A DNA stretch of 51,903 bases from Candidatus Anderseniibacteriota bacterium. GTDB lineage: Bacteria; Patescibacteriota; Andersenbacteria; UBA10190. Shown here piece by piece: positions 10,841 through 30,822 of the stretch. Under the pieces are notes generated by a model. The model saw nothing but the letters and a program-made list of their open reading frames with translations, did not search any database and was not told the DNA's origin. Each line of letters opens with the position of its first letter. Position 1 is the first letter of the stretch. The translations under genes were made by a program, and so were the position numbers. The stretch is taken from contig JBBDOX010000017.1 of NCBI GenBank assembly GCA_040876835.1, positions 1 through 51,903 of the forward strand, in the 5' to 3' direction.

Positions 10841-10961
10841 ACAGCGATAATATCATATTTTCCTGTCACAAAAACTGACACTCTCGCATTGCAGACGCTA
10901 TTAATCCCGGTACGGTTGAAGCACGAAACAGCAGTAATTTTTATTAAGGAGGTGGTACACA

Positions 10962-14364: not shown

Positions 14365-14432
14365 AGTGATGCTTACATACTAGCACCACGAGTCTAATTG
14401 CGCTATAGGCCTCAATACATTAAGCTCGCAGG

Positions 14433-15161
14433 GTGCGGATCCGCTTTCTCTCTCTTTTTCTTCTTGTATTACTGACCGCAAGCCTTATGGCGCGATCTCG
14501 ACAGGCCGAAGCGCCTGTTCTAATAGAGGAGCCTGCATCCCACGCCACTCCCACAGTAACTCCGCTTCTACAATCCCCTCAGCCCGCAGCAGTCCCCCTG
14601 TTAACCGCCCCTATCACCAGCCCCGAACAACGAGTTTCCAAAAAACCCTTTGGCATCCACATCACTCCCGCAACATCTCCCGTATTATTCGATATCTTCA
14701 ACGGATATCACACCGGAGTAGATTTTGAAGTGTTTGAAAACGAACTTCCACTCGACGTTGAGATATCGGCAGTCTGCTCCGGCCCTCTAATATTCAAAGG
14801 TTGGATTACAGGATATGGCGGAGTGGCCGTACAGCAGTGTCAGCTGGAAGAGCAGACAGTCACTATCGTCTACGGGCATTTGAATCTTGCCACTATTATT
14901 GTAAGCAAGGGGGATATGATCGCCCCCGGTGAACGCATTGGTGCTCTCGGCCAAGGATTTAGTTCTGAAACCGACGGTCAGCGTAAACACCTTCATCTTG
15001 GTATTCACAAAGGAGCTGTTGTGAATGTTCAGGGATATGTAGATACCAAATCTGCTCTGGAAGAATGGGTAAATATTCTGGACTATGCCCTCTCGTCTCT
15101 GGGATTCGTTAAATCTAAAAGATTGCTGTTAATAAGTCAGCAAGTCCTCCCGCTACAGTAG
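14433..15161 (+). CDS. M23 family metallopeptidase, secreted
   Basis: Signal peptide; HTGVD, YGHL and HLHLGI zinc motifs. Confidence 0.88.
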   Translation: MRIRFLSLFLLVLLTASLMARSRQAEAPVLIEEPASHATPTVTPLLQSPQPAAVPLLTAPITSPEQRVSKKPFGIHITPATSPVLFDIFNGYHTGVDFEVFENELPLDVEISAVCSGPLIFKGWITGYGGVAVQQCQLEEQTVTIVYGHLNLATIIVSKGDMIAPGERIGALGQGFSSETDGQRKHLHLGIHKGAVVNVQGYVDTKSALEEWVNILDYALSSLGFVKSKRLLLISQQVLPLQ

Positions 15162-15239
15162 TAGAACACCAGCTCACTCAAACTTGCCTACAAATACTTT
15201 CTGTAGCACAGCCCTCCCATTAACGCCCAACAAAGAGGA

Positions 15240-15268
15240 TTGCAAACGACAAGAATTACCAATATTAT
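15240..15268 (+). promoter_or_regulatory. Probable original ychF promoter, now separated from ychF
   Basis: TTGCAA-17-TATTAT upstream of AGGA RBS and ATG AAA ATA GGA (MKIG) at 15302. Confidence 0.5.
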
Positions 15269-15291
15269 CACTATCACAAGAGTTAAGGATA

Positions 15292-15314
15292 GGATCAAAA
15301 AATGAAAATAGGAA
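15292..15314 (+). repeat. attL, containing a displaced copy of the ychF 5' end
   Basis: GGATCAAAAAATGAAAATAGGAA, 21/23 identical to 29208-29230. Confidence 0.85.
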
Positions 15315-15444
15315 CTTGCAGTTTACTGCACCATGTTTTGAGTTCCACTTCTCCTTCCCAACACCAAAGCCACGACGAGACCGCAAGATTACACAAAGAA
15401 ATAAGGCTGGACAGATAGTTCACAGCCAGCCGCCAGCCATTTAA
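15315..15444 (+). other. Detached 3' end (42 codons plus stop) of the serine recombinase gene
   Basis: Frame reads KNENRN-LQFTAPCFEFHFSFPTPKPRRDRKITQRNKAGQIVHSQPPAI*; KNENRN is in the same frame as the recombinase C-terminus across the att repeat. Confidence 0.7.
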
Positions 15445-15637
15445 TCAGCGGCGCTATTACTTTTTTGGGCGCGCCGGAGCACCATTTGGAATTCCGAGCC
15501 CCAAGAATGGCGGGGCGGCTTTTATATGAGGTAAATAATCAAAAAAGGATCCCCACCTGCGCGAGCCAATAAGTTACAAAATTGCCCCATAAAGTCATTT
15601 ACAGTACAATGAAACGTCGCATCAGCAATCTTTATGG

Positions 15638-17683
15638 ATGAATGCGAGCCTAAAAACTATGCCTACAACCATACCCTATTTACAAACCGCCTTACGAGAA
15701 CTTGACCTGCCACAGAATGAAGCAGAGCAAGCAGAAAGAAATGCGAAGAGTATCATGGAAGCAGTTGCCAGTGTGAGAAATACTGCTCCAGAAAATCGCT
15801 TCGGTCTTATTTATGGTCGCATTCAGAGCGGAAAAACGAGAGCGATGATCGTAAGCACCGCCATTGCATTTGATGAGGGGTTTAAAATTGCAATTGTACT
15901 CACCAGCAACATCAATGATTTAGTAGCTCAAACTCACCTGAACTTTGCTGCCGGATTCCCTGATGTGATTATCCGCACTAAAGATGATGAGCTAACAAGC
16001 GAAGTAGAAAGCACTAAGATTGCTCTTGAGTACGGCGAGGGACGCCTGTTAGTAGTATGTTCCAAAGGAAGCGCTAGCCTGGAAAACGTCATTGAATTCA
16101 TGAAGGGTATTGGCGCAAAAAATCATGACACTATCATCTTTGACGATGAAGGAGATCAAGCTTCTTTAGATACTCAAACTCGCAGACGTTCACAAGGCAA
16201 ACCAAACTCTGAGCCTAGTAAAATCCATTATCTAATAAATGATCTTCGAAAGGTGTGCAAATCAAATGTTTACGTTAGCGTTACCGGCACCCCTCAAGCC
16301 GTACTACTGCAAAGCCTGCAGGCACGCCCATCGTTTATTCAACTTCTCCCGCCTGGGGATCCGTACGTGGGGGGAGAGCAATTCTTCAATACTTCTACGC
16401 CTGATGACAATGAAAGCCATTTGATCCGCACCATACCTGATGACGAGCGTGAGCAATTACTTGATGAGGATTCCCCTATTCCATCTGGTCTTCGACAAGC
16501 TTTGTTGTTTTTCTTAGTAGCAGCTGCAGCGGCACACGACAAGCTTGGTCAGCCTAAAGAAAATAAAGGCTATCAGTTCTTGTGCCATCCAAGTCTAAAA
16601 AACAAGGAACAGAGCATAGTCGAAGACCAGATGCGGACATTTGTTGATGACATATATAAAAAACTGTTGACTGACGCTAGTAAAATAGAAGAAGAACTAA
16701 AAGTCGCGTACAACGAACTTAAAAAAACCGCTACGGATGTTCCTGCATTACCGCAGCTTAAGCAAACCATGATTCGACAACTTGGCGCGAAAAAAATCTT
16801 GGTAATTAATGCCGCTACAAAAAGACAAGGCATTTCCTATGGTAATAGCATCAACTTTCTTATTGGTGGCAATACATTAGGCAGAGGTATAGCAATCCCG
16901 AAATTACTCGTAACGTACTACACCCGAGGAGGAAGAATTTCACAGATGGATACAATGCACCAACACGCTCGTATGTTTGGATACCGCAAAGAGGAGCTTC
17001 CTTATACACGCCTGTTTGTGCCACGCATGCTATATGACCGATTCCGTGAAATATATCTGTCCGATGAGAGCTTACGTAGCTTCATAGAAGCACACAAGGA
17101 TTCGCCTGCATCTTTCCCCATTGAGCAACTGCAAGAATTGCGCCCAACAAGACCAGCTGTACTGGACGTAAACACAATAGAAATTCTTCGCCCAGGAATG
17201 CAGATTTTCCCAAGCCCGATAAAGTTACCCCAACCTCAAAGGTCATACCAAAAGGTAGCTAATGAGATCATGGAAATCTTTGATGTTAAAGATCTGCAGA
17301 GCGCAATCGGAAAAGAAGCACAGATCAACAAGGAAAAGGCAACTGCATTACTTTCCATGATCAAGACAGGCTCAGGGAATACGTGGAGAGATAAGACAAT
17401 TGGTGTATTGCTCAAGAAGATTGATCAGCATCTAGGAGGCATAGTCAACATACGCTTTCGAGAAGCAGAGAGGCGCATTGATAGCAATAGAGAGCTTGGT
17501 AGCGGTATGCTTTCCGGAGCAGAGCATGCTGAGTCCCGCGAGAAGGATTCACCTACGTTGTGGCTCATAAGCGCAACGGCATCGGATGAAAGTGTTATTG
17601 AATATCAGGGTGAGCTGTTTATATATCCAACTCTCGTTGTACCAAACTCATTGCCCAAGCTGTTTATCTTCAGCAACAAGTAG
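15638..17683 (+). CDS. Z1-domain SF2 helicase-like ATPase (R-M associated)
   Basis: GRIQSGKT, IFDDEGD, VTGTP, IGGNTLGRG...YYTR...DTMHQHARMFGYR. Confidence 0.85.
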   Translation: MNASLKTMPTTIPYLQTALRELDLPQNEAEQAERNAKSIMEAVASVRNTAPENRFGLIYGRIQSGKTRAMIVSTAIAFDEGFKIAIVLTSNINDLVAQTHLNFAAGFPDVIIRTKDDELTSEVESTKIALEYGEGRLLVVCSKGSASLENVIEFMKGIGAKNHDTIIFDDEGDQASLDTQTRRRSQGKPNSEPSKIHYLINDLRKVCKSNVYVSVTGTPQAVLLQSLQARPSFIQLLPPGDPYVGGEQFFNTSTPDDNESHLIRTIPDDEREQLLDEDSPIPSGLRQALLFFLVAAAAAHDKLGQPKENKGYQFLCHPSLKNKEQSIVEDQMRTFVDDIYKKLLTDASKIEEELKVAYNELKKTATDVPALPQLKQTMIRQLGAKKILVINAATKRQGISYGNSINFLIGGNTLGRGIAIPKLLVTYYTRGGRISQMDTMHQHARMFGYRKEELPYTRLFVPRMLYDRFREIYLSDESLRSFIEAHKDSPASFPIEQLQELRPTRPAVLDVNTIEILRPGMQIFPSPIKLPQPQRSYQKVANEIMEIFDVKDLQSAIGKEAQINKEKATALLSMIKTGSGNTWRDKTIGVLLKKIDQHLGGIVNIRFREAERRIDSNRELGSGMLSGAEHAESREKDSPTLWLISATASDESVIEYQGELFIYPTLVVPNSLPKLFIFSNK

Positions 17684-17749
17684 CTGTCAGCGCACTCGAG
17701 TTTTTCCGCAAAAGTCCATATACTAGAAGTGGCTGTGGAAAAACTTACA

Positions 17750-18838
17750 ATGGCTAACAAAAAGGACACAATACGAATCAGCGACGCCAAGGTGATCGAT
17801 CTCTTCTGCGGGATCGGCGGCATGACGCATGGCTTTATACAATCCGGATTTGATGTAGTGGCAGGTATTGATAACGACCAGTCGTGCAGTTATGCATTTG
17901 AAACTAACAACAACGCTGCATTCATACATAAAGACATAGCCGATGTCTCAGCGGATGAACTGAATGCAGCCTTTGGCAAAACCACAATAAGAGTTTTAAT
18001 TGGTTGCGCTCCATGCCAACCATTCTCTTCTATGAATTCAAAAAAGATTCGCTACAAAAATAACCATGTGAAGTGGCAACCACTCGACGAATTTGCAAGA
18101 CTAATTCAGAAGGTGAAGCCGGAAATAGTATCAATGGAAAATGTGCGCGACCTTCAATACACAAAAAAGTATCCGGTATTTGAACGCTTTCTTAATACAC
18201 TCAATAAGTGCGGCTATCATGTCACCTTTAAAATTGTTAATACCGCTCGCTATGGCATTCCTCAAAAGCGTCATCGATTGGTTTTACTCGCCTCCCGTCT
18301 AGGTAGTATCAGCTTAATTCCTGAAACACATCCGGCAGGAAAAGAAATAACAGTGAGAAAAGCAATTTCTAGGCTACGACCAATTCAAGATGGAGAAGTA
18401 GACGCTAAGGATCCGCTCCACCGAGCAAGTAAATTAAACGACATAAATAAGAAAAGGATCATCGCCACTCCTCATAACGGTGGCAGTGCATCCGATTGGT
18501 CAAAAGAGTTACTCCCTCAGTGCTACCAGAAAGAGAGTGGTAAATCATATATGGCTTCAGTTTATGGAAGAATGCGCTGGGATGATGCTGCACCCACAAT
18601 GACAACTCACTGCATTACACTGGGAGCTGGCAGATTCGGGCATCCCGAACAAGACAGAGCTTTATCCCTACGCGAAGCCGCACTTATTCAGACTTTTCCA
18701 AGGAGATATAAATTCTTCACTAACAACAAAATGTCTATCAATCAAATTGCGAAGCATATTGGCAACGCTGTTCCGGTAAAACTAGGAGAAGTAATTGCGA
18801 CAAGCATCAAGCAACACCTACAACAACACTCTAACTAA
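17750..18838 (+). CDS. DNA (cytosine-5)-methyltransferase
   Basis: DLFCGIGG, GCAPCQPFS, ENV, PQKRHR, R.LSLREAA.IQTFP, IGNAVP. Confidence 0.95.
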   Translation: MANKKDTIRISDAKVIDLFCGIGGMTHGFIQSGFDVVAGIDNDQSCSYAFETNNNAAFIHKDIADVSADELNAAFGKTTIRVLIGCAPCQPFSSMNSKKIRYKNNHVKWQPLDEFARLIQKVKPEIVSMENVRDLQYTKKYPVFERFLNTLNKCGYHVTFKIVNTARYGIPQKRHRLVLLASRLGSISLIPETHPAGKEITVRKAISRLRPIQDGEVDAKDPLHRASKLNDINKKRIIATPHNGGSASDWSKELLPQCYQKESGKSYMASVYGRMRWDDAAPTMTTHCITLGAGRFGHPEQDRALSLREAALIQTFPRRYKFFTNNKMSINQIAKHIGNAVPVKLGEVIATSIKQHLQQHSN

Positions 18839-21389
18839 ACATCCTGTTCACTTCGCTCTGCCATTCTGATTGGGTAATTAGTTCGAACTGAACTTTCTTA
18901 GGAGTTTTTGGCAATCCTTCAACCTGCCCCCACGGTTGCTTAATTTTATCTACAAAAGCATTGTATATCTCAATTAGCTGGCGCTTATATGCCGTGTCTT
19001 CTGTACGCGCCAATTGTACACCTTTGGTTTCAACTACGTACACCTTCTGAAATTCATCTGGGTTTTCATTCGAAGTGGTAAAGATAAAATCAGGAAAGAA
19101 CTTTCCGCGTCGCCAGCCAATAAGCTTATAACCCTTCTTAGGTTTATTCCTGTACCACCAGTATGTACGATCCTTTTTATCTTCTAAATAATGCGCAAAT
19201 TCTGCTTCAAAGTCATTCATGCTTCCCTTCACAATCGGTTCAAACAAGCTCTTTTGATATGATTCTCTACCCTGTCCATCGTAATAGCTTTCTTTTTCTA
19301 ACACGGCATCTGCATTGAATCGCAATACGAACCGTATTTCATCTGCCTCAAGCTTCGCTAAAAAAACTTCCCTAGCCAAGCGGTTGATCTCACCAATCGA
19401 TTCATTATCCCCCGCAAGCAACCTGCGTAGCGCATCAAGGAAAAGAATTTGGTTCTCTTTAATCTCATCTTCACTAAACCGATTCTTTAGTACATCGATT
19501 GCCCTTCCTACTACTCGCTGCCCAATCCAAGGGTTGGGAATAAGATCAAGAATATTTCGAACAAAGAATGATTTATGAAATTCCGTATTTCGTAATGGGT
19601 TCTCCTGCAGCTCCTTTATCTCCAAAAATTCCTCTTGATCAGTCGCTGTGGAGGCAGTAAAGCTAAACGCTGTAATGGTTTGAAGTGACTGCTTTTTTGG
19701 ATCTATATGCACCTTCTCCAAACCCGAATAGTCTATTTTTTCATAATCAACAAAAGGCAATATATCGTAAGAAAAATCTAGTTCCCGCGTTTCGCCCTGT
19801 GAATCCTTTGTAACAAATGAGGGTAGGATGAAATCATGGAGACTCTTCTGGAATGCGTCAGTGCGAATATCTTGCTTCTTTCGCTCTCCAAGATCCGTAT
19901 TCTTGGTATTAGTTTTCACCCGATCAAAGAGATCACCCATCCCATCATGTTCAAATCCTTTCTGAATAACTGAAATGAGCTTTTTTGAAGTATCGCGCAA
20001 GCAAAGAACATAGCTTTCATCCAGTAATTTATTGCCCGTTTTGCGAGCGTACGGTTGCCGCAGCACTCGACCTACTAATTGTGTTAAAGCGCTTGAGGAT
20101 TTTGAACTGCTTAACACGGTGAGTACATACGCAAATGAGCAATCCCACCCTTCCTGTAGTGCCTGCTTGGTAATGATAAAACGAATAGGGGAAGAGGAAG
20201 ATAAGAGATCAATCCCTTCAATATCATTCTGGCTACTCGTTTTAATCGCAATCTGTTCTTCAGGAATCCCCCGATCAATTAAGTATTCTTTAACGTCATC
20301 GGCATGGATTGCATCAGCGCCCCGCTGATCCTTTCCGGTTTTTTCTACTTGAATAAGATTGATCGGACGAATATATACTCCTGTCTGGCTTTTATACTTC
20401 TCCGCTTCTGCCTGTAATTTATCAAGATGCTCAACAGAAAAATCTACAAGTCGCTGCCATTCCTGCACCTCTTCTTCGATGAGGTTAAGATCCAGTTTAA
20501 TCATGGCTTCTTCCTCAAGCTCACGTCCGGCAACTGAGAACAACACATTAGCATCTTCGATTGGTGTCGCAGTCAATTCACAAACACACGAGGGATTACA
20601 CTCATTAATTGCACTTAGAGCCAATTCACTCTTCGCCTTATGCCCTTCATCAAGAACAACCAATGGTTCAAGAATCTTTACCACATTGCCTAATGAAGTT
20701 TTGATCGCCCCTCCGTATAGGCTGTCGAAACTCTGGCTCAAATCAAGATTCGGAAACATTTCGTATAAAGCCTTTTGTTTGGGCTGATCAGTCTCAAGTG
20801 GAAAGAAATCAGGGAAACGACCATTATCTTGAAAGAATTTCAGATCATCTTTCTTCAACTTATCTCGACCAAAAGACTGCAGCATCAACACTAATACAAC
20901 TAACCCATTTTGAACGTCAGAAGGGGAAAAAGAATCCTTCTTTGTTATGATTTTGACCCGTCCACTTGTAACATCATCAAGCTTTTCACGATAGGGATGG
21001 GATCGGTCTTTTAAAGCTTCAATGGTTTGCGCAAAAATCTGTTCACTGGGCACAACCCACAACACCAGTCCCGTTTTCTTTTTCTTAACGTGCTGTAAGA
21101 ACAAATCAATAGCATACGTTGCCATGAGTGTTTTACCTCCACCAGTAGGGAGCTTCAAGCAAAATGTAGGACAATATTTACCATGACCCGTTTTACGAGC
21201 GGTATATGAATGATTGACATGCCCTTCTGGAAAAACTTGCTGCCAAGCATCCTCGGCATAATCCCCTACCTTCTCTTTAAACTTTTCAGGTACTTCTTCA
21301 TATTCATGCATTGCTTTTTCAAGCTCACGAAAATACGAGTCCATTGCCTCGACAGTATGCCGCTGAAAGTTTTTCAGTAAAAAAGGCAT
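18831..21389 (-). CDS. res: Type III restriction endonuclease Res subunit
   Basis: PTGGGKT, LDEGH, TATP, ALQEGWDC, QLVGRVLR; C-terminal PDFIF...VETKG nuclease motif. Confidence 0.9.
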   Translation of the reverse strand: MPFLLKNFQRHTVEAMDSYFRELEKAMHEYEEVPEKFKEKVGDYAEDAWQQVFPEGHVNHSYTARKTGHGKYCPTFCLKLPTGGGKTLMATYAIDLFLQHVKKKKTGLVLWVVPSEQIFAQTIEALKDRSHPYREKLDDVTSGRVKIITKKDSFSPSDVQNGLVVLVLMLQSFGRDKLKKDDLKFFQDNGRFPDFFPLETDQPKQKALYEMFPNLDLSQSFDSLYGGAIKTSLGNVVKILEPLVVLDEGHKAKSELALSAINECNPSCVCELTATPIEDANVLFSVAGRELEEEAMIKLDLNLIEEEVQEWQRLVDFSVEHLDKLQAEAEKYKSQTGVYIRPINLIQVEKTGKDQRGADAIHADDVKEYLIDRGIPEEQIAIKTSSQNDIEGIDLLSSSSPIRFIITKQALQEGWDCSFAYVLTVLSSSKSSSALTQLVGRVLRQPYARKTGNKLLDESYVLCLRDTSKKLISVIQKGFEHDGMGDLFDRVKTNTKNTDLGERKKQDIRTDAFQKSLHDFILPSFVTKDSQGETRELDFSYDILPFVDYEKIDYSGLEKVHIDPKKQSLQTITAFSFTASTATDQEEFLEIKELQENPLRNTEFHKSFFVRNILDLIPNPWIGQRVVGRAIDVLKNRFSEDEIKENQILFLDALRRLLAGDNESIGEINRLAREVFLAKLEADEIRFVLRFNADAVLEKESYYDGQGRESYQKSLFEPIVKGSMNDFEAEFAHYLEDKKDRTYWWYRNKPKKGYKLIGWRRGKFFPDFIFTTSNENPDEFQKVYVVETKGVQLARTEDTAYKRQLIEIYNAFVDKIKQPWGQVEGLPKTPKKVQFELITQSEWQSEVNRMFS

Positions 21390-22999
21390 TACTCAGCCAA
21401 CCTATATATCTCAAAAGGCAACTGAGCGAAACGGATATTCCGATCCCGTAGATCAAACTCTTCTAAGAAACATGCTGGAGCAAACACAAGCTTCGCCTCT
21501 TCCGGAAATTGCTTTTCAATTTCCTCTGCAAAATCCAGATTCAGTGCCATCTCTCGAAGCTTATCTGCATCTGGCTCATACATCATAAACACCTGATATG
21601 TTGCAGATTTTCCAAGATAGTATTTGCTCTTGTCTAAAGCCTTCGGCTTAAAAACTTCACCAGTTGCTGTATAGAACGTGTATTGTGCTAAATCTTCATA
21701 GGAAGGCAATTTCTTGCCTTCAAGAATATCATCCACATCAACTGGATCACCAAGCTTGTAAAAACTAAACGATCCACCAAACCCTTCTTTTAGGTTTCCG
21801 TCCTTCGCTTCTGGAATACCCTTTATTACCCGCCTCACTCGCTCAGCTGTAATTTTATCTGCATAATCTTCCATCTCCACTAGGATAAATTTCCGATTAC
21901 CACCATCCTCTTTATTTTGAGCTAACACAGCATGGGCAGTTGTGCCTGAACCAGCAAAGGAATCGAGCACAATGTCATTCTTACTTGTGGCAACATCTAA
22001 TATCTTCTTGATAAATTTTGTTGGCTTTGGCGTCTTGAATAAATCAGCAGTCTCTTTCTCTGGAAAGATTTTCTTTAGCTCATACTTTGCATTGCGATTA
22101 TGTCCCGTTTCCTCAATATCTGCCCATAAGGTTGAAGGTGCCAGACCTTTCTGATCTACTAGGTAAGTTTTTTTGATAAGACGCTTCCCATCCTCACTAA
22201 AGATTACTTCTCTTTCCTCTATTTTCTCTAATAAAACTTCCTCAGACCATCTCCATCCATTCGCAGGCGAGCTAATCTCATGACCTTGTGGAGAAGTTAT
22301 TTTGTACTTTAAGTTTTCTCTCGGATTTGGTGAGGAAAGATTACCTGGAAACCAAGCCCCTCTTGGGTCATCATCAGGGTTTGTATAATGAGCGTTATCT
22401 TCATCTGTACGATCTAATAAATTGGTTTTCCATCCTGGGTTTTTAGAGAAAACAATCGTCTCATTATGATCAAGTGAAAATTGCTTCGCATCATTATTAG
22501 AAGAATCAGCTGACCGCCAAATAATAGTTGCGACATAACGATCCTCTCCAAAGATTTCTTCCATCATTGAACGTAAGTTATGAGCTTCGTTATCGTCTAT
22601 TGATACAAAAATAACTCCCTCATCGCTTAAAAGTTCTCGAAGCAGTTTTAACCTCGGATACATCATGCAGCACCATTTGTCGTGTCTCGCCAAATCGTCT
22701 CTTCCTACCTCCTCTTTCAACCATTTCTGAATCATGGGGGAGTTAACATTGTCATTATAAGCCCACCCCTCATTGCCCGTGTTATAAGGCGGATCAATAT
22801 AGATACATTTCACCTTGCCAGCGTAGGTTGGCAGCAATGCTTTGAGTGCTTTTAGATTGTCGCCGTGCACTATAAGGTTGTCATCCAGCGATGGTTCGTC
22901 TGATAGGCTTTTCTTTTTGTCCGGTAACAGCTCATGAAATTTAACCGTATGGTGATGGTTTTGAATGACTGGCTTACCTTTGAAGTGCAAAATTGGCAT
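21389..22999 (-). CDS. mod: Type III R-M Mod subunit (amino-methyltransferase)
   Basis: GDNLKALK, IYIDPPYNTG, TPKP, DSFAGSGTTAHAV; stop overlaps the res start codon. Confidence 0.92.
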   Translation of the reverse strand: MPILHFKGKPVIQNHHHTVKFHELLPDKKKSLSDEPSLDDNLIVHGDNLKALKALLPTYAGKVKCIYIDPPYNTGNEGWAYNDNVNSPMIQKWLKEEVGRDDLARHDKWCCMMYPRLKLLRELLSDEGVIFVSIDDNEAHNLRSMMEEIFGEDRYVATIIWRSADSSNNDAKQFSLDHNETIVFSKNPGWKTNLLDRTDEDNAHYTNPDDDPRGAWFPGNLSSPNPRENLKYKITSPQGHEISSPANGWRWSEEVLLEKIEEREVIFSEDGKRLIKKTYLVDQKGLAPSTLWADIEETGHNRNAKYELKKIFPEKETADLFKTPKPTKFIKKILDVATSKNDIVLDSFAGSGTTAHAVLAQNKEDGGNRKFILVEMEDYADKITAERVRRVIKGIPEAKDGNLKEGFGGSFSFYKLGDPVDVDDILEGKKLPSYEDLAQYTFYTATGEVFKPKALDKSKYYLGKSATYQVFMMYEPDADKLREMALNLDFAEEIEKQFPEEAKLVFAPACFLEEFDLRDRNIRFAQLPFEIYRLAE

Positions 23000-23061
23000 A
23001 TTTATACTTTAACAGATCGACGGCTTATAGTCCCAAAAAGTAACTAATTAATCAATAAAGA

Positions 23062-24150
23062 TTACTTTTTGCGCTTCTTTATAAGCTCAAGTAAATCAGC
23101 TTCGCTCTCAAATCCCTTCAATCTTCCTGTTAACACGCCAAGCCTTGAAGTAATTCCATCGCTCATCAGCCGCCAGTTGGTATTCTCAAGTTTCCCTTTA
23201 ACCAATCGTTGCAGATCATATTTGCTGGCAGCGTCGCTCCGGTCTCCCTTTGTATCTTGCGCTGTAAAACTAACAACAACATGCCGCTGTATCTCTGGCT
23301 GCAAAAATTCAAGTCGTTGATAGCCACCCTCTTTTAACTCTGCTTTAAGCAGGCTTTCTAATTGCGCCACTGACACTTTTTCCAATCGCTTCAGTTGATC
23401 GTAAAGATGTTTGTTCTTTTCCTTCTCCTTGAAGCTATCAACCAAGTCTTTCATTCCAGCAAATTTAACTTTGTAGTGTCGCCATTTTTCACCTTCTTCA
23501 ATTGAAAGACAAAAACGAGCACGATCATTTATGTACTCCGGATCCTCTTCAATAGGGGGCTTATCAGAAAGATCCGTGATGTCCTTATCGCGATACTCAC
23601 AGCGCGGACAGTTGTAGTATCGAATGATAGCCTTCTTAGTACGCCGCACTTTCTCGATCACTTCAACATTACATTTTGGGCAAAGCGTCGGCTCAACAGT
23701 AAATTCATCACCGTTATCAAAAATTCCTCTACCAGGCTTGCAGCCACTGCTGCAAAACAAGAAGAACAACACTCTCTCCTGATCATGTAAATCATAGTAG
23801 TCTCGCATATCGCAGACCATTTCATCACCACAGTTGCGGCAGTTTATATTACTAGGCGGTTGTTTGCTTGCCACAAATTCATCTATTTGCTCATCGCGTG
23901 TCATCCATTTCTGTATCGTCTCTTCCTTTTCTATATACATGTCCGCCTTAGCAAAAGAGAGATATAACCCCATTGTCATATCACGAACCACCTCCTGCAT
24001 TTTTTTAGTTGGGTTAGGAATATCCTTCGTACCCTTAGAGTAGTCAGTTTCGATAAATCTTTTCTCTATTTCGCGGCATCTATCGACAGTTATTCGATCA
24101 TATAGGTCGTTATAGTCCTGTTTTGATTGAAGATGGTTGTGTGTTTTCAC
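23062..24150 (-). CDS. Hypothetical protein with four Cys pairs (two putative Zn ribbons)
   Basis: CRNC, CSSGC, CPKC, CPRC; C-terminal TNWRLMSDGITSRLGVLTGRL. Confidence 0.8.
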   Translation of the reverse strand: MKTHNHLQSKQDYNDLYDRITVDRCREIEKRFIETDYSKGTKDIPNPTKKMQEVVRDMTMGLYLSFAKADMYIEKEETIQKWMTRDEQIDEFVASKQPPSNINCRNCGDEMVCDMRDYYDLHDQERVLFFLFCSSGCKPGRGIFDNGDEFTVEPTLCPKCNVEVIEKVRRTKKAIIRYYNCPRCEYRDKDITDLSDKPPIEEDPEYINDRARFCLSIEEGEKWRHYKVKFAGMKDLVDSFKEKEKNKHLYDQLKRLEKVSVAQLESLLKAELKEGGYQRLEFLQPEIQRHVVVSFTAQDTKGDRSDAASKYDLQRLVKGKLENTNWRLMSDGITSRLGVLTGRLKGFESEADLLELIKKRKK

Positions 24151-24244
24151 TGGCGACTATTCTGGTTTAGATTGCATGCATTCAAGCTACTTCATTGAAC
24201 ATACATTGATTGTCTAGTACACGCGTATATAGCCAATAAATGGC

Positions 24245-24685
24245 TTAATTAATGCTGGTTTTTACCGTGTGTCCCTTCTTGCGTAACGTATCTACTGCTC
24301 CATGGAAAGTATTAATCATACCCTTGGAGACTGAGATACCCTCTTTGCCTCTCAAATTCATTACGTCCTCTTGAAACCCATATTCCTTTGCCATCCTGAA
24401 TAACCCATCAAGATCCGTCTGCTTACCATCGACTGTAACTTTTGTAGCTAATAGCGACTCTTCAACAAGCTTCCGGCTCGATTCTTCAAACTTTATATCT
24501 TTAGCAAACTTTGTCTTCTTTTGTTGGTCATTCCAGCCGATCCAAGCGAAGAGAATTATCGTTAATATTAGAGCTCCTGAACCAATAGATTTGTTCTCTA
24601 GCGAGAACAACCAATAAAAAGCCAGCAACAGCAGAATGCCGCCAAAGAACAGTAATCCTCCTTGGCTATCCTCCTGTATTCGCAT
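24245..24685 (-). CDS. Hypothetical 2-TM membrane protein
   Basis: Two N-terminal TM helices and a ~95-aa soluble C-terminus. Confidence 0.7.
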   Translation of the reverse strand: MRIQEDSQGGLLFFGGILLLLAFYWLFSLENKSIGSGALILTIILFAWIGWNDQQKKTKFAKDIKFEESSRKLVEESLLATKVTVDGKQTDLDGLFRMAKEYGFQEDVMNLRGKEGISVSKGMINTFHGAVDTLRKKGHTVKTSIN

Positions 24686-24789
24686 AGGTACTGCTATCTA
24701 TTGCCATCATTACTTTATACGCCTCATCACCCATAAATGCTAGTTATTGACTGTAGATCCATTGACTGCAACCAGCGGATCATAAAGGA

Positions 24790-25005
24790 ATGGCACGGGA
24801 TATACGTTATTACTTTGGGCAACGAGTCAGAGCACTACGGGAGCAGCGTGGTTATTCCCAAGAAGATCTGGGTATGAAGGCAAAGATCCACCGCACTTAT
24901 ATTGGTTCCGTCGAGCGCGGCGAGCAAAATGTTTCGATTATCAATATTGAGAAAATTGCCCGCGCCCTTGGCATTCCTTTAGGTGAGCTATTCCGGAAGC
25001 TATAA
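24790..25005 (+). CDS. XRE-family HTH regulator (R-M controller C-protein-like)
   Basis: FGQRVRALR...SQEDLG...IHRTYIGSVERGEQNVSIINIEKIARAL; AAGGA RBS. Confidence 0.9.
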   Translation: MARDIRYYFGQRVRALREQRGYSQEDLGMKAKIHRTYIGSVERGEQNVSIINIEKIARALGIPLGELFRKL

Positions 25006-25012
25006 AGTCCAG

Positions 25013-25040
25013 TTGACGCTCTCGTAACAGAGAGTAAAAT
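25013..25040 (+). promoter_or_regulatory. sigma70 promoter with a palindromic spacer
   Basis: TTGACG-16-TAAAAT; spacer CTCTC-gtaaca-GAGAG. Confidence 0.55.
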
Positions 25041-25047
25041 AAAGACA

Positions 25048-25184
25048 GTTCATTACAGGAATTGAATATCGGTCGAAAGACCACTCTTGAAAGGAGAAGT
25101 TGATCCCTATGCGATTTGTTATCATTGCGTGGGATTTTTGATTTTAAGATGAACAAAAACCGACGCAATCACGTCGGTTTTTTT
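25048..25184 (+). ncRNA. Candidate multi-stem structured RNA followed by an intrinsic terminator
   Basis: Closing stem GTTCAT/ATGAAC, GGTC-GAAA-GACC, CTCT-TGAAA-GGAG, ATCCC..GCGAT/ATTGC..GGGAT, then AAAAACCGACG/CGTCGGTTTTTTT. Confidence 0.55.
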
Positions 25185-25195
25185 GTTGGCGAATA

Positions 25196-25279
25196 GCATT
25201 GGGTATCAGAGCTCGTTAGCGAGCTTGCGAGGTTGCCATATACCCAATGCGCCTCGCTAGTTCACTAATGAGCTTTTTT
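25196..25279 (+). promoter_or_regulatory. Candidate attenuator with interleaved inverted repeats upstream of the primase gene
   Basis: A 25196-25206 pairs with A' 25240-25250; B 25208-25232 pairs with B' 25252-25276; T6 tract at 25274-25279. Confidence 0.5.
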
Positions 25280-25283
25280 ATTC

Positions 25284-27179
25284 ATGGATTCAGATCCAAA
25301 ACAAAATTCTTCAACTTCTCCTTCAGAGCTACTGAACGCTGCCTTGTCGTATAGACGACAAGGTTTCTGCCCTATTCCCGTCCATCCCAACCATAAAGGG
25401 GCATTAATCGAGTGGAAAAATTTTCAAAATGAACTACCGACCGAGAAGCAAATTAAAGAATGGTGGACAAAATTCCCAAACGCAAACATTGCCTTAATTT
25501 CCGGACACAACGGTTTAGTCATTCTTGATATAGACGTAAAGAGTAATCTCGAAAATAAACCAATTGCGGAAAAGATCGCTACTGCAATGCACGGAAAAGC
25601 GCCAGTTGTCAGAACACCATCTGGCGGTATCCATATTCACCTACGGGAGACGGACACAAAAAGCCAATTTGTGAAATTTGGCGACCTTGGGGAATTTCGC
25701 GCTGACGGTAAATACACCCTAGTGCCACCATCAAAAGGATATGCATTTGAAGGAGATTTAACCGAACCGCTTGAAGTACCTGACGCGTGGGAAGTAGTGA
25801 CGGGATTCCTTCGATCATTTGGTATTGATACCGAACAGTACAAGAAGACCGGAATGCCACAGGATGTTCTTTCGCAACCTATAACAAAAAACTATAGAAA
25901 CGACACCTTAGCAAGTATTGCAGGATCATTGCGCAAAAGGGGAGCAACTCCCGACATTTTACGAGCAACGCTCAAAGCGATTAACCAAGAAAACTGTGAT
26001 CCACCGTTACCCGATAGTGAAGTTGAATCAATAGCTAATAGCATCAATCGCTATCCAGCAGGACAACAAAGCTTCCCTTCCAACCTTAAAGAACAGCCAT
26101 TGGAGGAGGTTCTGGCGCTGAAGACCATTAGCGCCGGTGAATTACAGAAAAGAGCATTGGAATTTTTAAAACCGGTTGAATCCCTACCCGTTCTTGGTCG
26201 TAGCGGATTTCTCCCCGAGGGTTGGTGCATTTTAGTTGCTGGTGCTCCTAAAGCGGGAAAAACGGAGCTAATCGTTGCTGCCTTGCAGGATTGGAGAAAA
26301 CCAATTTTGTTTATTTCCGAAGAGCCAGAAGTGGTATGGGCAAGAAGATTATCAGAAGGAGAAAAAAATTGGGAGGAAATAAAATTAGATATTGCTTTCT
26401 ACATAGGAATAGGGAGTCACTCAGTAGCAAAGTTTATAACCGAAACCTCTGCCGAAGTAGTTATCATCGATACTGTCAGAAATGTCATAGGAGGTTATGA
26501 CGAAAACGACAATTCGCAAGTCGCCGCAGCTATTAATCCCGTAATTAAAGCGGCTAGAGCCAATAATAAAACCTTGATTCTTCTCCACCACATGAGAAAA
26601 GGTGGCGGAGATAATGGTGAGGGCATCTCGGGCGGACATGCTTTATTTGGCGCAGTAGATGTTGGTCTTGAAATTACTAGGAATGGGACAGCAAAAAATC
26701 AAAGAATTCTTAAAGGATGGGGTCGCATATTTGAAATCCCTGAACTTTTATACGAAAGAACCGAAGAAGGCAATCTGATTGCGCTTGGTGCCCCACAAGA
26801 AGTTAGCCTTAATAGCGTTAAGAAAAGAGCTTGCGAAGCACTCTATCATGACGAATGGCAATCAGTTAAGGAAATTTTAAATCGCCTTGGAGATCCAAAA
26901 CCAAGCGACGAGCAACTTCGAGTAGCTCTGAAGGAGCTTGCTTTGGCAGGGGAAGTACTAAGAGATCCAGATATCAGCGTAGGTAAAAAGCAGGGAAAGG
27001 GACAAAAGTGGAAACTTCCCGCTGACCCTACTTCCAATGATCAAGGTCTTAGGTTGGAAGAAAAGAGCAGCCACCAAAAGGTCTTTAATGCCGACGACAT
27101 CAATATTTCGGAATTGATAAGTTTGAAACCAGAGGACGAAGAGGCACAAGTACCACTCTTAAAGGAAGAAAATGAATAG
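25284..27179 (+). CDS. Bifunctional primase-polymerase + PriCT + AAA_25/RepA-like helicase
   Basis: ILDID and RTPSGGIHIH (Prim-Pol); RNDTLASIAG...CDPPLPDSEV (PriCT); GAPKAGKT, VIIDT and LLHHMRK (helicase). Confidence 0.88.
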   Translation: MDSDPKQNSSTSPSELLNAALSYRRQGFCPIPVHPNHKGALIEWKNFQNELPTEKQIKEWWTKFPNANIALISGHNGLVILDIDVKSNLENKPIAEKIATAMHGKAPVVRTPSGGIHIHLRETDTKSQFVKFGDLGEFRADGKYTLVPPSKGYAFEGDLTEPLEVPDAWEVVTGFLRSFGIDTEQYKKTGMPQDVLSQPITKNYRNDTLASIAGSLRKRGATPDILRATLKAINQENCDPPLPDSEVESIANSINRYPAGQQSFPSNLKEQPLEEVLALKTISAGELQKRALEFLKPVESLPVLGRSGFLPEGWCILVAGAPKAGKTELIVAALQDWRKPILFISEEPEVVWARRLSEGEKNWEEIKLDIAFYIGIGSHSVAKFITETSAEVVIIDTVRNVIGGYDENDNSQVAAAINPVIKAARANNKTLILLHHMRKGGGDNGEGISGGHALFGAVDVGLEITRNGTAKNQRILKGWGRIFEIPELLYERTEEGNLIALGAPQEVSLNSVKKRACEALYHDEWQSVKEILNRLGDPKPSDEQLRVALKELALAGEVLRDPDISVGKKQGKGQKWKLPADPTSNDQGLRLEEKSSHQKVFNADDINISELISLKPEDEEAQVPLLKEENE

Positions 27180-27351
27180 GAGAAAGCCAATTAAGATTAA
27201 CCTCATTGGCTTAGATTCTCCTGAGAATAAGCCGAACTTACAGCGAGCGTACAATCGCCTTTTTGCATGGGCAGAGGAAGAAATTCGTACAGAACAAAGA
27301 GGGTTGGGGAAAACTAGGGGTGTTAATAATAGTACAAATAGTTACAATTAA
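27172..27351 (+). CDS. 59-aa hypothetical protein, absent from the ORF track
   Basis: MNRRKPIKINLIGLDSPENKPNLQRAYNRLFAWAEEEIRTEQRGLGKTRGVNNSTNSYN*; AAGGA RBS; overlaps the primase stop. Confidence 0.6.
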   Translation: MNRRKPIKINLIGLDSPENKPNLQRAYNRLFAWAEEEIRTEQRGLGKTRGVNNSTNSYN

Positions 27352-27361
27352 TAGTGTAAAT

Positions 27362-27544
27362 ATGTCTGAATTAGATTCAAAAGAAGAATTTCTCACCGTC
27401 CAAGAAGCAGCTAAAAAGCTGCGGGTAAAACCCATCACAATTTACCGGATGGCTCGAGCCGGAAAACTCCCTGCCATTAAATTTGGTAAGTCTTGGCGAA
27501 TAAGTAGCCGCCGATTATCAGAAATGTTTAATTCTAAGCCTTAA
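27362..27544 (+). CDS. Excisionase-like helix-turn-helix protein (HTH_17)
   Basis: FLTVQEAAKKLRVKPITIYRMARAGKLPAIKFGKSWRI. Confidence 0.88.
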   Translation: MSELDSKEEFLTVQEAAKKLRVKPITIYRMARAGKLPAIKFGKSWRISSRRLSEMFNSKP

Positions 27545-27593
27545 ATAAAACCAGAGGCTCAGATTGGAACCCGAAGCCTCTGGCAGATGACAC

Positions 27594-29246
27594 ATGAAGC
27601 CACCTAGCCACAATTCTACGGAAGACACTGTACAACAGCAACCACGCATTGCTGCTCTCTATGCGCGTGTTTCAACCGAGCGACAAGAAGATGAGCAGAC
27701 CATTCAGGTACAAATTGCCGAATTGAAAGAAAGAATTGCGGCTGACGGCAATGTGCTCTCTGATAAAAATATTTTTACAGACGATGGTTGGAGCGGTGCA
27801 ATGCTGCAGCGTCCTGCCCTTGATAACATGCGCGCAGCCGCCGCCAATGGAAGCTTTGAAGTATTGTATGTATTTGATAGAGGCAGACTAGCTCGCAAGT
27901 ATCATTATCAAGCTATCGTCATTGAGCAACTTGAAGATCGCGGCATAGTTTTCATTTCATTGAAGGATAAATCAGTTGTGACGGATGACGACAGGGTTTG
28001 GCAGGGTTTCCAGGGGTTATTCGCAGAATGGGAACGAGCAAAGATTGCCGAGAGATTCCGTATTGGCAGAATTCAGCGAGCCAAAGCCGGTCGTCTAATC
28101 AATGGGCAATCACTCTATGGATATACCCGCATAAAGCGTGGCGAAAAACAACCTGCTTATATTATTATTAATGAGGAAGAGGCACGGGTAGTGCGAATGA
28201 TCTTTGAGTGGTATGGCAGCGAGAAGTGCTCGCTTCGTGAAATTATTCAACGCCTCTATAGGCTTGGTATCCCACCTCGTAAAGAGAAAAGTGACAGATG
28301 GACAAAGGGACCACTGATTAGAATCCTAAAGTGCGAAAGTTATTTTACCGGTGAGATCTACTACAACAAATCAGAGGCAGTTGTGCCAAAAAACCCTATC
28401 AGTAAAGAAAAGTATAAGAGGGTAAAAAAGAGTAGCCGCAAAGAACGTCCACGAGAAGAATGGCTCCCCTACTCTGTTCCCAAACTCATTGAAGACACCA
28501 CAATTTATGCCAAGGTTCAAAAGCGACTAGAGTACAACAAGCGATATGCCACTAAAAATAAAAAACATGATTACCTTCTAAGTGGCTTTGTCTGGTGTGA
28601 ATGCGGTCATCGCCGTGCTGGTGATGGGTACAGCAAAGGCAATAACCACTATTACCGCTGCGCTCAACGCATCTACAAGCATCCTAAGCCCAGTGAATGC
28701 ACGTCGCCTGGCATTAACGCCGTTGTGGTAGATAAGGCATTCTGGCATAAGTTTTCCGAATTCCTGAAAGATCCAAAATTATCCAGAGAAGCAGCCGAAA
28801 ATTACTTAAAGGAAACGAACGTGGATTCAGTAACAAAACAGCAGCAGCTACGACTTCAGCAAATACTAGACAATCTTGGTGAGGAAGAAAAAAGATACCT
28901 TAAAGCTTACGGTACTGGCACTATGAGCGAGCAACAATTTCAAGAAATGGCAGAGGACGTAAGCCGTCGAAGACTACCCCACCAACGACAACTTAATGCT
29001 CTGCGTATTCAAGAGCGCCAGCGGCAAGTTGATCCGATAAGTGTTGAAAAACTAATGGAAAAGGTCGCTCTAAAGCTTAAGAAGATTGACCCCTCAGAGA
29101 AACGAGAAGTGATCGAGGATGTTATATCAAAGGTCTGTATTGGTCGAAATACAGTTGATGTATATGGCAAAGTCGAGATACCATCATCTTCATTATGTTT
29201 AAACATGGGATTAAAAAATGAGAATAGGAATCGTCGGCCTGCCTAA
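27594..29246 (+). CDS. Large serine recombinase (integrase)
   Basis: YARVST catalytic Ser, DDGWSG, QRPAL, DRGRLAR, YLLSGFVWCECG...YYRC zinc ribbon, coiled coil. Confidence 0.95.
   Translation: MKPPSHNSTEDTVQQQPRIAALYARVSTERQEDEQTIQVQIAELKERIAADGNVLSDKNIFTDDGWSGAMLQRPALDNMRAAAANGSFEVLYVFDRGRLARKYHYQAIVIEQLEDRGIVFISLKDKSVVTDDDRVWQGFQGLFAEWERAKIAERFRIGRIQRAKAGRLINGQSLYGYTRIKRGEKQPAYIIINEEEARVVRMIFEWYGSEKCSLREIIQRLYRLGIPPRKEKSDRWTKGPLIRILKCESYFTGEIYYNKSEAVVPKNPISKEKYKRVKKSSRKERPREEWLPYSVPKLIEDTTIYAKVQKRLEYNKRYATKNKKHDYLLSGFVWCECGHRRAGDGYSKGNNHYYRCAQRIYKHPKPSECTSPGINAVVVDKAFWHKFSEFLKDPKLSREAAENYLKETNVDSVTKQQQLRLQQILDNLGEEEKRYLKAYGTGTMSEQQFQEMAEDVSRRRLPHQRQLNALRIQERQRQVDPISVEKLMEKVALKLKKIDPSEKREVIEDVISKVCIGRNTVDVYGKVEIPSSSLCLNMGLKNENRNRRPA
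29208..29230 (+). repeat. attR, overlapping the recombinase 3' end and the ychF start codon
   Basis: GGATTAAAAAATGAGAATAGGAA; identical core AATAGGAA shared with 15307-15314. Confidence 0.85.
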
Positions 29247-30294
29247 CGTAGGCAAATCAACTCTCTTTAACGCCTTAACCAAACAGGCGGCCTTAGCGCG
29301 CAACGTGCCGTTTACCACTATCGAACCGAATGTAGGCGTTGTACCCGTACCAGATGAACGACTCGATGTCCTCTCTAAAATATCCAGCTCTGCCAAAATC
29401 GTACCTACCACGATTGAATTCGTGGACATTGCCGGCTTGGTTCGTGACGCCCATAAAGGAGAAGGTCTGGGGAACAAGTTTTTGGCAAACATCCGAGAAG
29501 TGGACGCTATCATTCACGTCGTCCGCTTCTTTGAAGCCTCCGACATTATTCACGTCGACAACAAGGTGGATCCGATCAGCGATGCGGAAACAATCAACAC
29601 GGAGTTAGCCCTGGCGGATCTAACCAGCGTCGAAAAAGCCCTGGAACGTAACGAGAAGTTGGCTAAAGGAAACGACAAAGAAGCCGTGGCAAAAGTCGCC
29701 ATCTATAAACGCCTGCAGGCACAGCTGGCGCAGGGCAATCCGGCTCGCGATCTTACTTTCGAAGAAAAAGAGCAGCCCTATGTTCGTGAACTCTTTCTGC
29801 TCACCATTAAACCCATCCTGTATATTGCCAATGTTGACGAAGCGCAGATAGGCAGCGCTGAAGAAGTAACGAAGGTATTTACGAATATTCATAAAAACGT
29901 CCTGCCAATCAGCATTAAGATCGAACAGGAACTTGTCGAACTTTCCGACGAAGAGCGCCTGACTTTTCTGCAGGAATACGGTCTGTCCGCCACCGGACTT
30001 GATCGCTTAATTAACGCCAGCTACAAGCTGCTTCACCTAATCACGTTCTTTACCAGTGGAGAAAAGGAAACCCGAGCCTGGACTGTCAGAGCGGGCAGTA
30101 CCGCCCCCCAGGCCGCCGGTGAAATCCACAGCGACTTTGAACGAGGGTTCATCCGGGCGGAAACGGTTGCCTACGATGATCTGACTACTGCCGGCTCCTA
30201 TGCTGCCGCCCGGGCAGTCGGGAAAGTAAGGGATGAAGGGAAGGGATATATCGTCAAAGACGGCGATATCATGCTATTTAAGTTTAGTGTATAA
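29218..30294 (+). CDS. ychF: Ribosome-binding ATPase YchF
   Basis: GIVGLPNVGKSTLFNALT, DIAGLV, GEGLGNKFL, IHSDFERGFIRAE, YIVKDGDI. Confidence 0.97.
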   Translation: MRIGIVGLPNVGKSTLFNALTKQAALARNVPFTTIEPNVGVVPVPDERLDVLSKISSSAKIVPTTIEFVDIAGLVRDAHKGEGLGNKFLANIREVDAIIHVVRFFEASDIIHVDNKVDPISDAETINTELALADLTSVEKALERNEKLAKGNDKEAVAKVAIYKRLQAQLAQGNPARDLTFEEKEQPYVRELFLLTIKPILYIANVDEAQIGSAEEVTKVFTNIHKNVLPISIKIEQELVELSDEERLTFLQEYGLSATGLDRLINASYKLLHLITFFTSGEKETRAWTVRAGSTAPQAAGEIHSDFERGFIRAETVAYDDLTTAGSYAAARAVGKVRDEGKGYIVKDGDIMLFKFSV

Positions 30295-30393
30295 AACAAT
30301 ATAATGTTCAGGTGTCAATAGAAAGATTTTCTGCCTGTTAAATCCTTGTGTTTTTTGGCCTTTTACGCTACTGTAGACGAACAATTTCTTGAT

Positions 30394-30822
30394 ATGAACC
30401 AATACGAAATCACCTATCTCATTGATCCCCAGGTAAACGAAGAGGCTCGCACCGAGCTGAATTCTGCCGTGGATAGCAAAGTGAGTGAACTAAAAGGAAA
30501 GGTAGGGCACTCCTCTCCCACTCTGCGTCGCAAGCTTGCTTACGAAATCGACAAAAAGCAGTCAGTATTTATGCGCAATATGCACATTGATCTGTCCCCA
30601 GCTGAAGTGGCTACCCTTCATGACTTCTTCAAACGTACCCCCACTATTCTACGCTTTTCACTAATCAATACCCCCTACCGTGAAGGATCTGCCCCCGACA
30701 CCCTCAAGCAGAAAGAGGAAGAAAGCCGTAAAAAGCCAAAAGTGACAGCTGAAAAGAAAAAGGTCACGATGAAAGATGTTGAAAAAGGCATTGAAGAAGC
30801 CTTAACTGAGGAAGTAAAGTAG
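30394..30822 (+). CDS. rpsF: 30S ribosomal protein S6 with C-terminal extension
   Basis: [22 protein letters not shown]; rpsF-ssb-rpsR synteny. Confidence 0.88.

Follow-up and report, generated by a model that had tools for sequence, protein, structure and literature searches.

A large serine integrase gene that appears to run across its own attachment site and to exchange a conserved C-terminal tail upon integration into ychF

Integrase genes that contain the attachment site of their own element (attP) have been described for tyrosine integrases. Those of Mx8 and SSV extend across attP according to the Islander paper, which cites Tojo et al. 1996 (PMC4383910), and the original prediction for the locus presented here had named both as precedents. 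What decides whether a serine integrase integrates or excises is the key question about this enzyme family and also the main obstacle to its use in reversible genome engineering, and the known control depends on a separate, unpredictable directionality factor. In published work, these factors are placed in the region of the zinc-ribbon domain DBD2 and the coiled coil, most of them add a beta-strand to DBD2, and the C-terminal beta-strand extensions of SCCmec recombinases could block the factor site (PMC12286644). Factors fused by engineering to the integrase C-terminus are used to fix directionality (PMC12286644; PMC5737554). The gene ychF, finally, is reported as an integration site for large serine recombinase elements, the pipolins (bioRxiv 10.1101/2024.05.22.595293). 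Here we analyzed 51,903 nucleotides of contig JBBDOX010000017.1 from a Candidatus Anderseniibacteriota bacterium, the whole of which is called the window and is numbered along its forward strand. Positions 15315-29230 are a predicted 13.9-kb integrative element of a Patescibacteria-type genome, with its insertion point at codons 4-5 of ychF. Its integrase gene very probably spans attP, so that a conserved C-terminal tail would be swapped on integration.

By its domains and by the fold of a homologue, the enzyme is a large serine recombinase. The catalytic domain (PF00239, E = 7e-26) covered residues 20-167 and its YARVSTERQ motif contributed R25 and S27, both invariant in 81 aligned homologues. 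DBD1 and DBD2 were matched by PF07508 and PF13408, with C335 and C369 invariant and C337 and C356 nearly so in the same alignment. The AlphaFold2 model of the homologue P0010 contained two long helices, 404-433 and 438-468, in keeping with a coiled coil inserted in DBD2, and retrieved the SPbeta (9dxd, E = 7e-20), PhiC31, Bxb1 and LI integrases in a Foldseek search. Of 8,000 candidates that were scored, 743 belonged to the family at E ≤ 0.001, and the best 120 of these 743 were used for comparison. The nearest homologues carried the source labels Andersenbacteria, Daviesbacteria, Roizmanbacteria and Woesebacteria, all of the Patescibacteria group. In 117 of the 120, similarity was lost after a conserved KLGYEPxSR(D/N) segment, and wherever the DNA was read (the window and loci L043, L081, L082, L086 and L087) the C-terminal remainder was out-of-frame ychF. 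Most database entries of this family seem to represent the integrated form, in which the tail is missing and the C-terminus is junk. The window itself followed this pattern: its 550-residue open reading frame (ORF) ended in MGLKNENRNRRPA, of which the last four residues, RRPA, and the stop codon are ychF read out of frame, the two genes overlapping by 29 nt in different frames. Among deposited phages and plasmids only distant recombinases were found (at most 34% identity), none of them matching the tail. The genome of the window held a second, very distant serine-recombinase-like match, at G000:C18:187446-188234 (locus L002; E = 5e-4, 26% identity, in a 557-aa frame).

The ends of the element were marked by a 23-bp repeat, identical at 21 of 23 positions, with its left copy GGATCAAAAAATGAAAATAGGAA at 15292-15314 and its right copy GGATTAAAAAATGAGAATAGGAA at 29208-29230. 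Similarity grew leftward to 53 nt at 72% identity (15262-15314 and 29178-29230), with a spacing of 13,916 bp. Both mismatches of the repeat lie to the left of an uninterrupted identical block of 8 bp, AATAGGAA (15307-15314 and 29223-29230), and identity stops at its right edge, which places the crossover somewhere within this block. The left copy translated as GSKNENRN in the frame equivalent to that of the integrase and continued as LQFT...PPAI for 42 codons up to a TAA at 15442-15444. When the ends were joined in silico, a 13,916-bp circle with a 588-aa integrase ORF resulted, and the 358-aa ychF was restored on the chromosome, starting with MKIG where the integrated form has MRIG. These were the central claims of the original prediction, from the repeat and the recombinase ending in out-of-frame ychF to the open codons and the two joined products, and all of them were reproduced. 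The left junction, attL, carries the original ribosome-binding region of ychF, its ATG at 15302 and its first four codons (MKIG), whereas at attR the ribosome-binding region, the ATG and the first four codons of ychF (MRIG) are new and come from the element. Because the element arm copies these parts, ychF stays intact after insertion. The overlap of ychF with the integrase stop codon suggests that the two genes would be co-transcribed, a suggestion drawn from gene arrangement since the promoter scan gave nothing above chance. The G+C content of the element was 42.6%, that of both flanks 49-50%. Dyad symmetry did not exceed that of shuffled sequences: the best dyad centre of the in-silico attP was the GG inside the 8-bp block, where 13 of 24 positions pair, and 77 of 500 shuffled sequences did equally well.

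The detached tail contains an aromatic beta-strand, CFEFHFSF, followed by a basic PKPR...G(R/Q)IVHS motif; its first codons double as the P' arm of attP. In three of the 120 best homologues such a tail was fused to the integrase in frame, namely in P0010 (579 aa), P0044 (573 aa) and P0097 (580 aa), with 50%, 46% and 34% identity to the window tail, respectively, and 45-49% over the whole proteins. A fourth fused protein, P0123 (577 aa), came from a genome named Woesebacteria by NCBI. The four tails were 34-65% identical among themselves. In the alignment of the window tail with those of P0010, P0044 and P0097, invariant residues include P14, F18, F20, P25, K26, R31, I33, R36, G40 and I42. P0123 also provided a matched pair, being 72% identical to the ychF-abutting integrase of L082. 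The final 29 residues before the junction were common to both proteins up to ISRD; P0123 then continued as SLFAVPQFDFYF, whereas the L082 enzyme ended in CGVS and a stop codon, overlapping ychF. This pair shows two states of one lineage, which part right after the position equivalent to the crossover of the window. We infer that P0010, P0044, P0097 and P0123 are episomal forms. A search for longer proteins returned six, of which three were fused, and a search with the terminal region of P0010 retrieved no other protein than P0010. The 201-aa protein P0122 shared its last 128 residues, including the tail, with P0123 on an unrelated N-terminus and looks like a deletion derivative that retained the end of DBD2 and the tail. 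Pfam had no match to the tail, whether as a separate peptide or as part of the four fused proteins, and the tail profile found no relative among viral contigs. DUF4368, proposed for the tail by a feature search (score 0.80), was at noise level by calibration, and hmmscan gave no confirmation, so that it was rejected.

A profile built from four tail sequences matched upstream of ychF in 28 of 401 genomes across the phylum, with 44 matches (E = 2e-30 for the window tail), and 47 loci in JGI metagenome contigs. With a 56-sequence profile, 289 clusters were found at E ≤ 0.001 in a representative library of 1.84 billion proteins. The library gives short ORFs only, presumably because clustering at 50% identity puts the fused proteins together with tail-less integrases. 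In the best 150 of these 289 clusters the ORFs were 39-302 aa long and the match mostly ended a few residues before the protein end, so that the stop position of the tail appears conserved. From 80 unique 31-codon cores, we obtained a pooled ratio of nonsynonymous to synonymous differences per site (pN/pS) of 0.22 over 77 pairs of 70-97% nucleotide identity, and a median ratio of the corresponding substitution rates (dN/dS) of 0.14 over the 61 pairs yielding a ratio; as the pairs share ancestry, both figures are descriptive and do not constitute a test. The other two frames of the 80 cores contained stops in 77 and 73 cases. At 45-120 nt from the crossover, the block that is conserved best (PKPRKxRII..RD..GRIVHS) is beyond any plausible attachment site, so that its conservation is not that of a DNA site. 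Homology, spread, selection and the matched pair together show that the 42 open codons are not due to chance, although their length alone would be within chance. Judged by these comparisons, the tail is a conserved and selected part of the integrase family. The idea that the C-terminus is replaced on integration was borne out by the four fused homologues, the matched pair and the conservation of the tail, and the expectation of an in-frame tail with dN/dS below 1 agrees with the values given above, non-independent as the pairs are.

The same one-strand arrangement, in which the tail is followed by the element, the integrase and ychF, recurred in G353, G194 and G040, with sizes of about 19.4, 8.9 and 7 kb, respectively, and in loci L043, L068 and L081. 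Checking the frame by the best 23-nt repeat was sound for the window; in the three latter loci the repeats matched at only 12-15 of 23 positions and the frame was judged by the continuity of the peptide at the junction. An integrase of the family at E ≤ 1e-60 was present in 10 of the 401 genomes and abutted ychF in eight, five of which had a clear tail (that of G136 on another contig) and one a weak one (G299, E = 0.006).

In the loci examined we counted 94 tail copies, at many places two or three in a row. Rows of two to four tail remnants were seen in L079, L066, L064, L038, L039, L041, L042, L046, L057, L061, L067, L069 and L036 as well as in G353:C1, G010:C4, G019:C17 and G011:C35, often with one or a few cargo genes and no integrase between them. 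Such serial remnants upstream of ychF look as if elements had repeatedly inserted at this one site and had then decayed. Some loci had features of their own. At 7261-7395, L057 contained a pseudo-copy of the ychF 5' end (MVSVGIIGLPNVGPST...) that goes on beyond the point where crossover usually occurs; a tail remnant follows about 100 nt downstream of it, and the real ychF 1.6 kb downstream. In L039 a single 267-aa gene (10157-10960) filled the entire gap from tail remnant to ychF, which would be an element shrunk to one cargo gene. In L008 (2057-2227) and L012 (1459-1659), the aromatic strand was set off from the junction by about 20 additional codons (...APRSF...SEVGFQL...), which the otherwise near-identical tail of L037 (660-830) lacks and which may be a small inserted repeat. 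L083 and L084 held Patescibacteria-type tail remnants under the depositor label 'uncultured Gammaproteobacteria'; these labels may be binning or naming errors.

Structure prediction offers a hint as to what the tail might do. The model of P0010, computed from the 81-sequence alignment, had a mean per-residue confidence (predicted local distance difference test, pLDDT) of 81.1 and a predicted template modelling score (pTM) of 0.46. It placed the last DBD2 hairpin at strands 503-508 and 514-521 and the tail segment YLEFEFEF (542-549) as a beta-strand, with a mean pLDDT of 83 over the 10-residue block, the remaining tail being of low confidence. When DBD2 of the window integrase (318-546) and the detached tail were predicted as a complex, the score was 0.64, as compared to 0.01 for the best of three controls. 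Of 80 solved complexes, 58 came up to this mark, as did 2 of 110 mismatched pairs, counts that hold only roughly here because the alignments were custom-made. Contact agreement between runs was at least 73% and the pLDDT of the partner at least 57. On the tail, the interface comprised residues 13-25 (APCFEFHFSFPTP) and 27-28 (P, R); on the integrase, residues 516-529 (IGRNTVDVYGKVEI, the last hairpin strand) and 372-404, the helices by which the zinc ribbon is connected to the coiled coil. The prediction thus has the tail strand adding to the DBD2 sheet beside the base of the coiled coil, and from this we infer that the tail would sit at the surface where directionality is controlled.

Taken together, the data suggest the following course of events. 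The integrase gene would run across attP, and the circle would encode a 588-aa enzyme with the conserved 42-residue tail. Integration would cut the gene within the 8-bp block, just past the R-N codons, and leave the tail stranded 13.9 kb away at attL; the shortened enzyme would be capped with four out-of-frame ychF residues, the element would supply the new start codon of ychF, and excision would reattach the tail. The anatomy of the gene and the tail swap were derived from sequence and its comparison, the excised circle having been constructed in silico, and we are highly confident of them. In the full-length enzyme, the tail strand would dock as an extra strand on the last DBD2 hairpin, against the coiled-coil helices. 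With the tail in the factor region, the long and short forms would be expected to respond differently to a directionality factor. We favor a shielding model, in which the tail would occupy or shield the factor site, so that the episomal enzyme would integrate and not respond to the factor; loss of the tail would expose the site, and the integrated short enzyme could be turned to excision by a factor, for which the product of a small helix-turn-helix gene of the HTH_17 family next to the integrase gene is a candidate. As a whole, this blend of structure and function is the explanation we lean to, if only slightly. That the two forms indeed differ in directionality is a more tentative proposition, which we regard with some doubt. 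A complete two-state toggle common in Patescibacteria, where the tail blocks the factor site, integration removes the tail and a co-transcribed HTH_17 protein drives excision, seems rather unlikely to us. Were it true, directionality would be set by the topology of a gene and not by the regulated supply of a separate factor.

Several points weigh against this explanation. The most conserved part of the tail, PKPR...GRIVHS, lies outside the confident interface and has a low pLDDT, and the docking strand need not be the part that matters for function. The complex score is the model's own confidence, and the model may in part recall solved integrase-factor complexes in which a strand is added to DBD2. 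Equally, the tail might act at this site as the mimic of a factor, and the polarity would then be the opposite. Fused copies were absent from the 44 genomic matches (open frames of at most 131 aa) and from the 47 metagenomic loci (one of which runs off its contig). The episomal nature of the four fused proteins is our deduction, and the contig of P0123 is listed as 57 kb, above any element seen here. The ychF-abutting integrases of G368 and G393 had neither a tail nor a recognisable repeat within 20 kb upstream. Joints corresponding to attP or to an empty attB were not found in assembled Logan contigs of four public DNA runs over 14300-30400, although this carries no weight either way because contigs drop rare forms; one contig from the probable source sample spanned the entire integrated element. 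An empty attB was not recovered from 30 relatives either, which are too diverged: the search with the left-flank DNA gave only a 46-nt match in G008.

The distribution of the tails also speaks for a different explanation, namely a one-way, 'suicidal' integration, as proposed for SSV-type tyrosine integrases, which split their own gene. Here the tail would be needed for activity or stability, the tail-less enzyme would be dead, and the element, unable to excise, would slowly decay in place. In 23 of the 28 tail-bearing genomes an integrase of the family (E ≤ 1e-60) was missing, which counts against our explanation and implies that many insertions end as dead remnants. Sixteen of the 47 metagenome loci had no integrase in the 0.7-4.8 kb that separate ychF from the tail upstream, and the two or three tails in a row resemble a graveyard of insertions that were never excised. 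Such a suicidal logic was described for tyrosine integrases of deep-sea archaea (PMC7253208). We nevertheless consider it unlikely here. Only 42 of 588 residues are lost, and the catalytic, recombinase and zinc-ribbon/coiled-coil domains stay intact; the integrated integrase ORFs were uninterrupted in eight of the ten genomes that have one; and the excisionase-type HTH_17 gene was kept beside the integrase in all three elements inspected. The fused database forms moreover indicate that circles or attP forms occur, though these may be molecules that had not yet integrated.

A tail with a role unrelated to directionality, the loss of which is tolerated on integration without any switch, would also fit part of the data. 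It might, for example, make additional contacts to the DNA next to attP, serve the integrase in regulating its own gene, which contains attP, stabilize the protein or couple it to the primase-polymerase (Prim-Pol) replication protein. The basic PKPRKxRII..RD..GRIVHS block, lying off the confident interface in a low-confidence part of the model, is what one would expect of a segment that contacts DNA or another partner, and the element has its own replication gene. To this option we give little credence, since the aromatic strand was predicted with good confidence on DBD2, in the region to which directionality factors are assigned (PMC12286644), and no support for a DNA or replication partner was obtained. 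Finally, the tail might be a coincidence or an artefact, with chance codons or a separate small gene at attL and fused proteins that are chimeras across the repeat. Forty-two open codons are by themselves not improbable, and no fused copy was met in the genomic or metagenomic DNA that was read. The four fused proteins, however, are independent and their tails have diverged from each other; the shared core, 8-23 bp in the window, is too short for identical chimeras to arise repeatedly; the tail frame is free of stops through the junction codons (R/W/G-D/N) in most attL copies; and the tail is under purifying selection. For a separate gene, one misses a conserved start codon or upstream signal, and the ORF starts at attL vary. 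We consider this last option very improbable.

The coordinates of the element and its surroundings are collected in Table 1.

Table 1. Features of the ychF-inserted element and its junctions in the window
Feature	Coordinates	Strand	Evidence or remark
Promoter-like site TTGCAA-17-TATTAT	15240..15268	+	Consensus match upstream of displaced ychF start
attL, chromosomal (B) arm and shared core	15262..15314	+	53-nt similarity, 21/23 core
Detached integrase tail, 42 codons (LQFTAPCFEFHFSFPTPKPRRDRKITQRNKAGQIVHSQPPAI) and TAA	15316..15444	+	In frame with integrase across repeat
Z1-domain ATPase, 681 aa, cargo	15638..17683	+	PF10593, E = 6e-33
C-5 cytosine DNA methyltransferase, 369 aa, cargo	17729..18838	+	PF00145, E = 2e-64
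Type III restriction Res-like helicase/nuclease subunit, 852 aa, cargo	18831..21389	-	PF04851, E = 2e-13
N6/N4 DNA methyltransferase, Mod-like, 536 aa, cargo	21389..22999	-	PF01555, E = 4e-37
362-aa protein	23062..24150	-	No Pfam match at E ≤ 0.01; sub-threshold zinc-ribbon matches only
146-aa protein	24245..24685	-	Sub-threshold matches to membrane-protein families only
Cro/C1-type HTH_3 regulator, 71 aa	24790..25005	+	PF01381, E = 9e-17
Replication protein, Prim-Pol + PriCT_1 + AAA_25, 631 aa	25284..27179	+	PF09250, PF08708, PF13481
59-aa ORF overlapping stop codon of replication gene	27172..27351	+	No family found
HTH_17 (excisionase-type) ORF, 60 aa, directly upstream of integrase	27362..27544	+	PF12728, E = 1e-14
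Large serine recombinase, integrated tail-less form, 550 aa	27594..29246	+	Resolvase, Recombinase and Zn_ribbon_recom domains
attR, element (P) arm and shared core	29178..29230	+	Inside integrase ORF
ychF, intact, 358 aa, start MRIGIVGLPNVGKS	29218..30294	+	First 13 nt from element

The host genome comprises 1.02 Mb in 18 contigs and was rated complete. The element probably replicates once excised, as suggested by its gene for a replication protein with Prim-Pol, PriCT_1 and AAA_25 domains. Two restriction-modification-type modules lie back to back at 15638-22999, one composed of the Z1 ATPase and the C-5 methyltransferase, the other a Res/Mod pair resembling type III systems, so that the element would act as a small defence island. 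Transcription of ychF may natively have started from the promoter-like site ahead of its displaced start, a site that would now read into the element. It was one of two such consensus sites, with 1.2 expected in shuffled sequences, which is a hint and no finding; promoter and terminator scans gave nothing above chance level. As to the genes next to the integrase, the original prediction had pointed to the 59-aa ORF and an HTH protein. This has to be corrected: the conserved upstream gene is neither the 59-aa ORF nor the HTH_3 regulator, it is the HTH_17 gene, which was not listed there. It occupied the same position in L043 (15890-16066) and L081 (7096-7278), and its product is a candidate directionality factor or regulator. 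In the window this 60-aa ORF is hidden within a 93-aa ORF that starts with TTG.

If our explanation holds, a whole family of natural integrases would attach and remove a conserved 42-residue peptide by their own reaction, and this peptide is predicted to bind the factor region. Even if the proposed polarity is wrong, the two natural isoforms would be a ready-made experiment on the DBD2 surface, and they might yield a compact directional bias that is independent of a factor. For annotation, detached integrase tails are present in small 'hypothetical proteins' encoded upstream of ychF, which make up at least 289 clusters, and the tails could serve as marks of past insertions in Patescibacteria genomes.

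How does this locus compare to described systems? In sequence, the nearest phage recombinase remained distant: the best tblastn match of P0010 in 50,697 phage records was the recombinase of Wolbachia phage WO, with 32.5% identity over residues 10-500, and as the match ended at residue 500 of 579 it excluded the end of DBD2 and the tail. A serine integrase gene spanning attP, a serine integrase that alters its C-terminus by its own reaction, or these Patescibacteria elements did not turn up in full-text searches of mainly open literature. An attP-spanning gene is known for tyrosine integrases; a precedent for serine integrases may exist in the literature beyond. The novelty that had been supposed for ychF-targeting serine integrases stands in part. 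The target as such is known from the pipolins, which are defined by piPolB whereas the present element has a Prim-Pol/AAA_25 protein; a C-terminal swap or an attP within the integrase gene is not mentioned in the accessible text of the pipolin paper (bioRxiv 10.1101/2024.05.22.595293).

The SCCmec Ccr recombinases share with our enzyme a C-terminal segment that adds strands to DBD2 at the factor site, predicted in our case and described for them in PMC12286644. Their extensions, like the engineered factor fusions, are permanent, whereas the present tail would be attached and detached by the enzyme's own reaction, depending on the state of the DNA. A unit split across the ends of an element is also reported for Tn4451 and Tn4453 (Lyras and Rood 2000): the promoter of their large serine recombinase TnpX reportedly comes together only in the circle, so that expression differs in the excised and the integrated element. 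In that case the split unit would be a promoter, here it is a protein. In gene topology, the locus resembles Mx8 (IntP/IntX) and SSV. As in these systems, attP lies in the integrase ORF, integration alters the C-terminus (as for Mx8; in SSV it splits the enzyme), and the protein encoded by the integrated element differs from that of the free one. For Mx8, the integrated form IntX is reported to have reduced activity. Their enzymes are tyrosine recombinases of another fold and chemistry, however, and ours is a large serine recombinase, so that the match between the classes is one of topology only. In large serine recombinases, direction is set through the coiled coil together with a factor that binds DBD2, and the exchanged piece is predicted to lie in this region.

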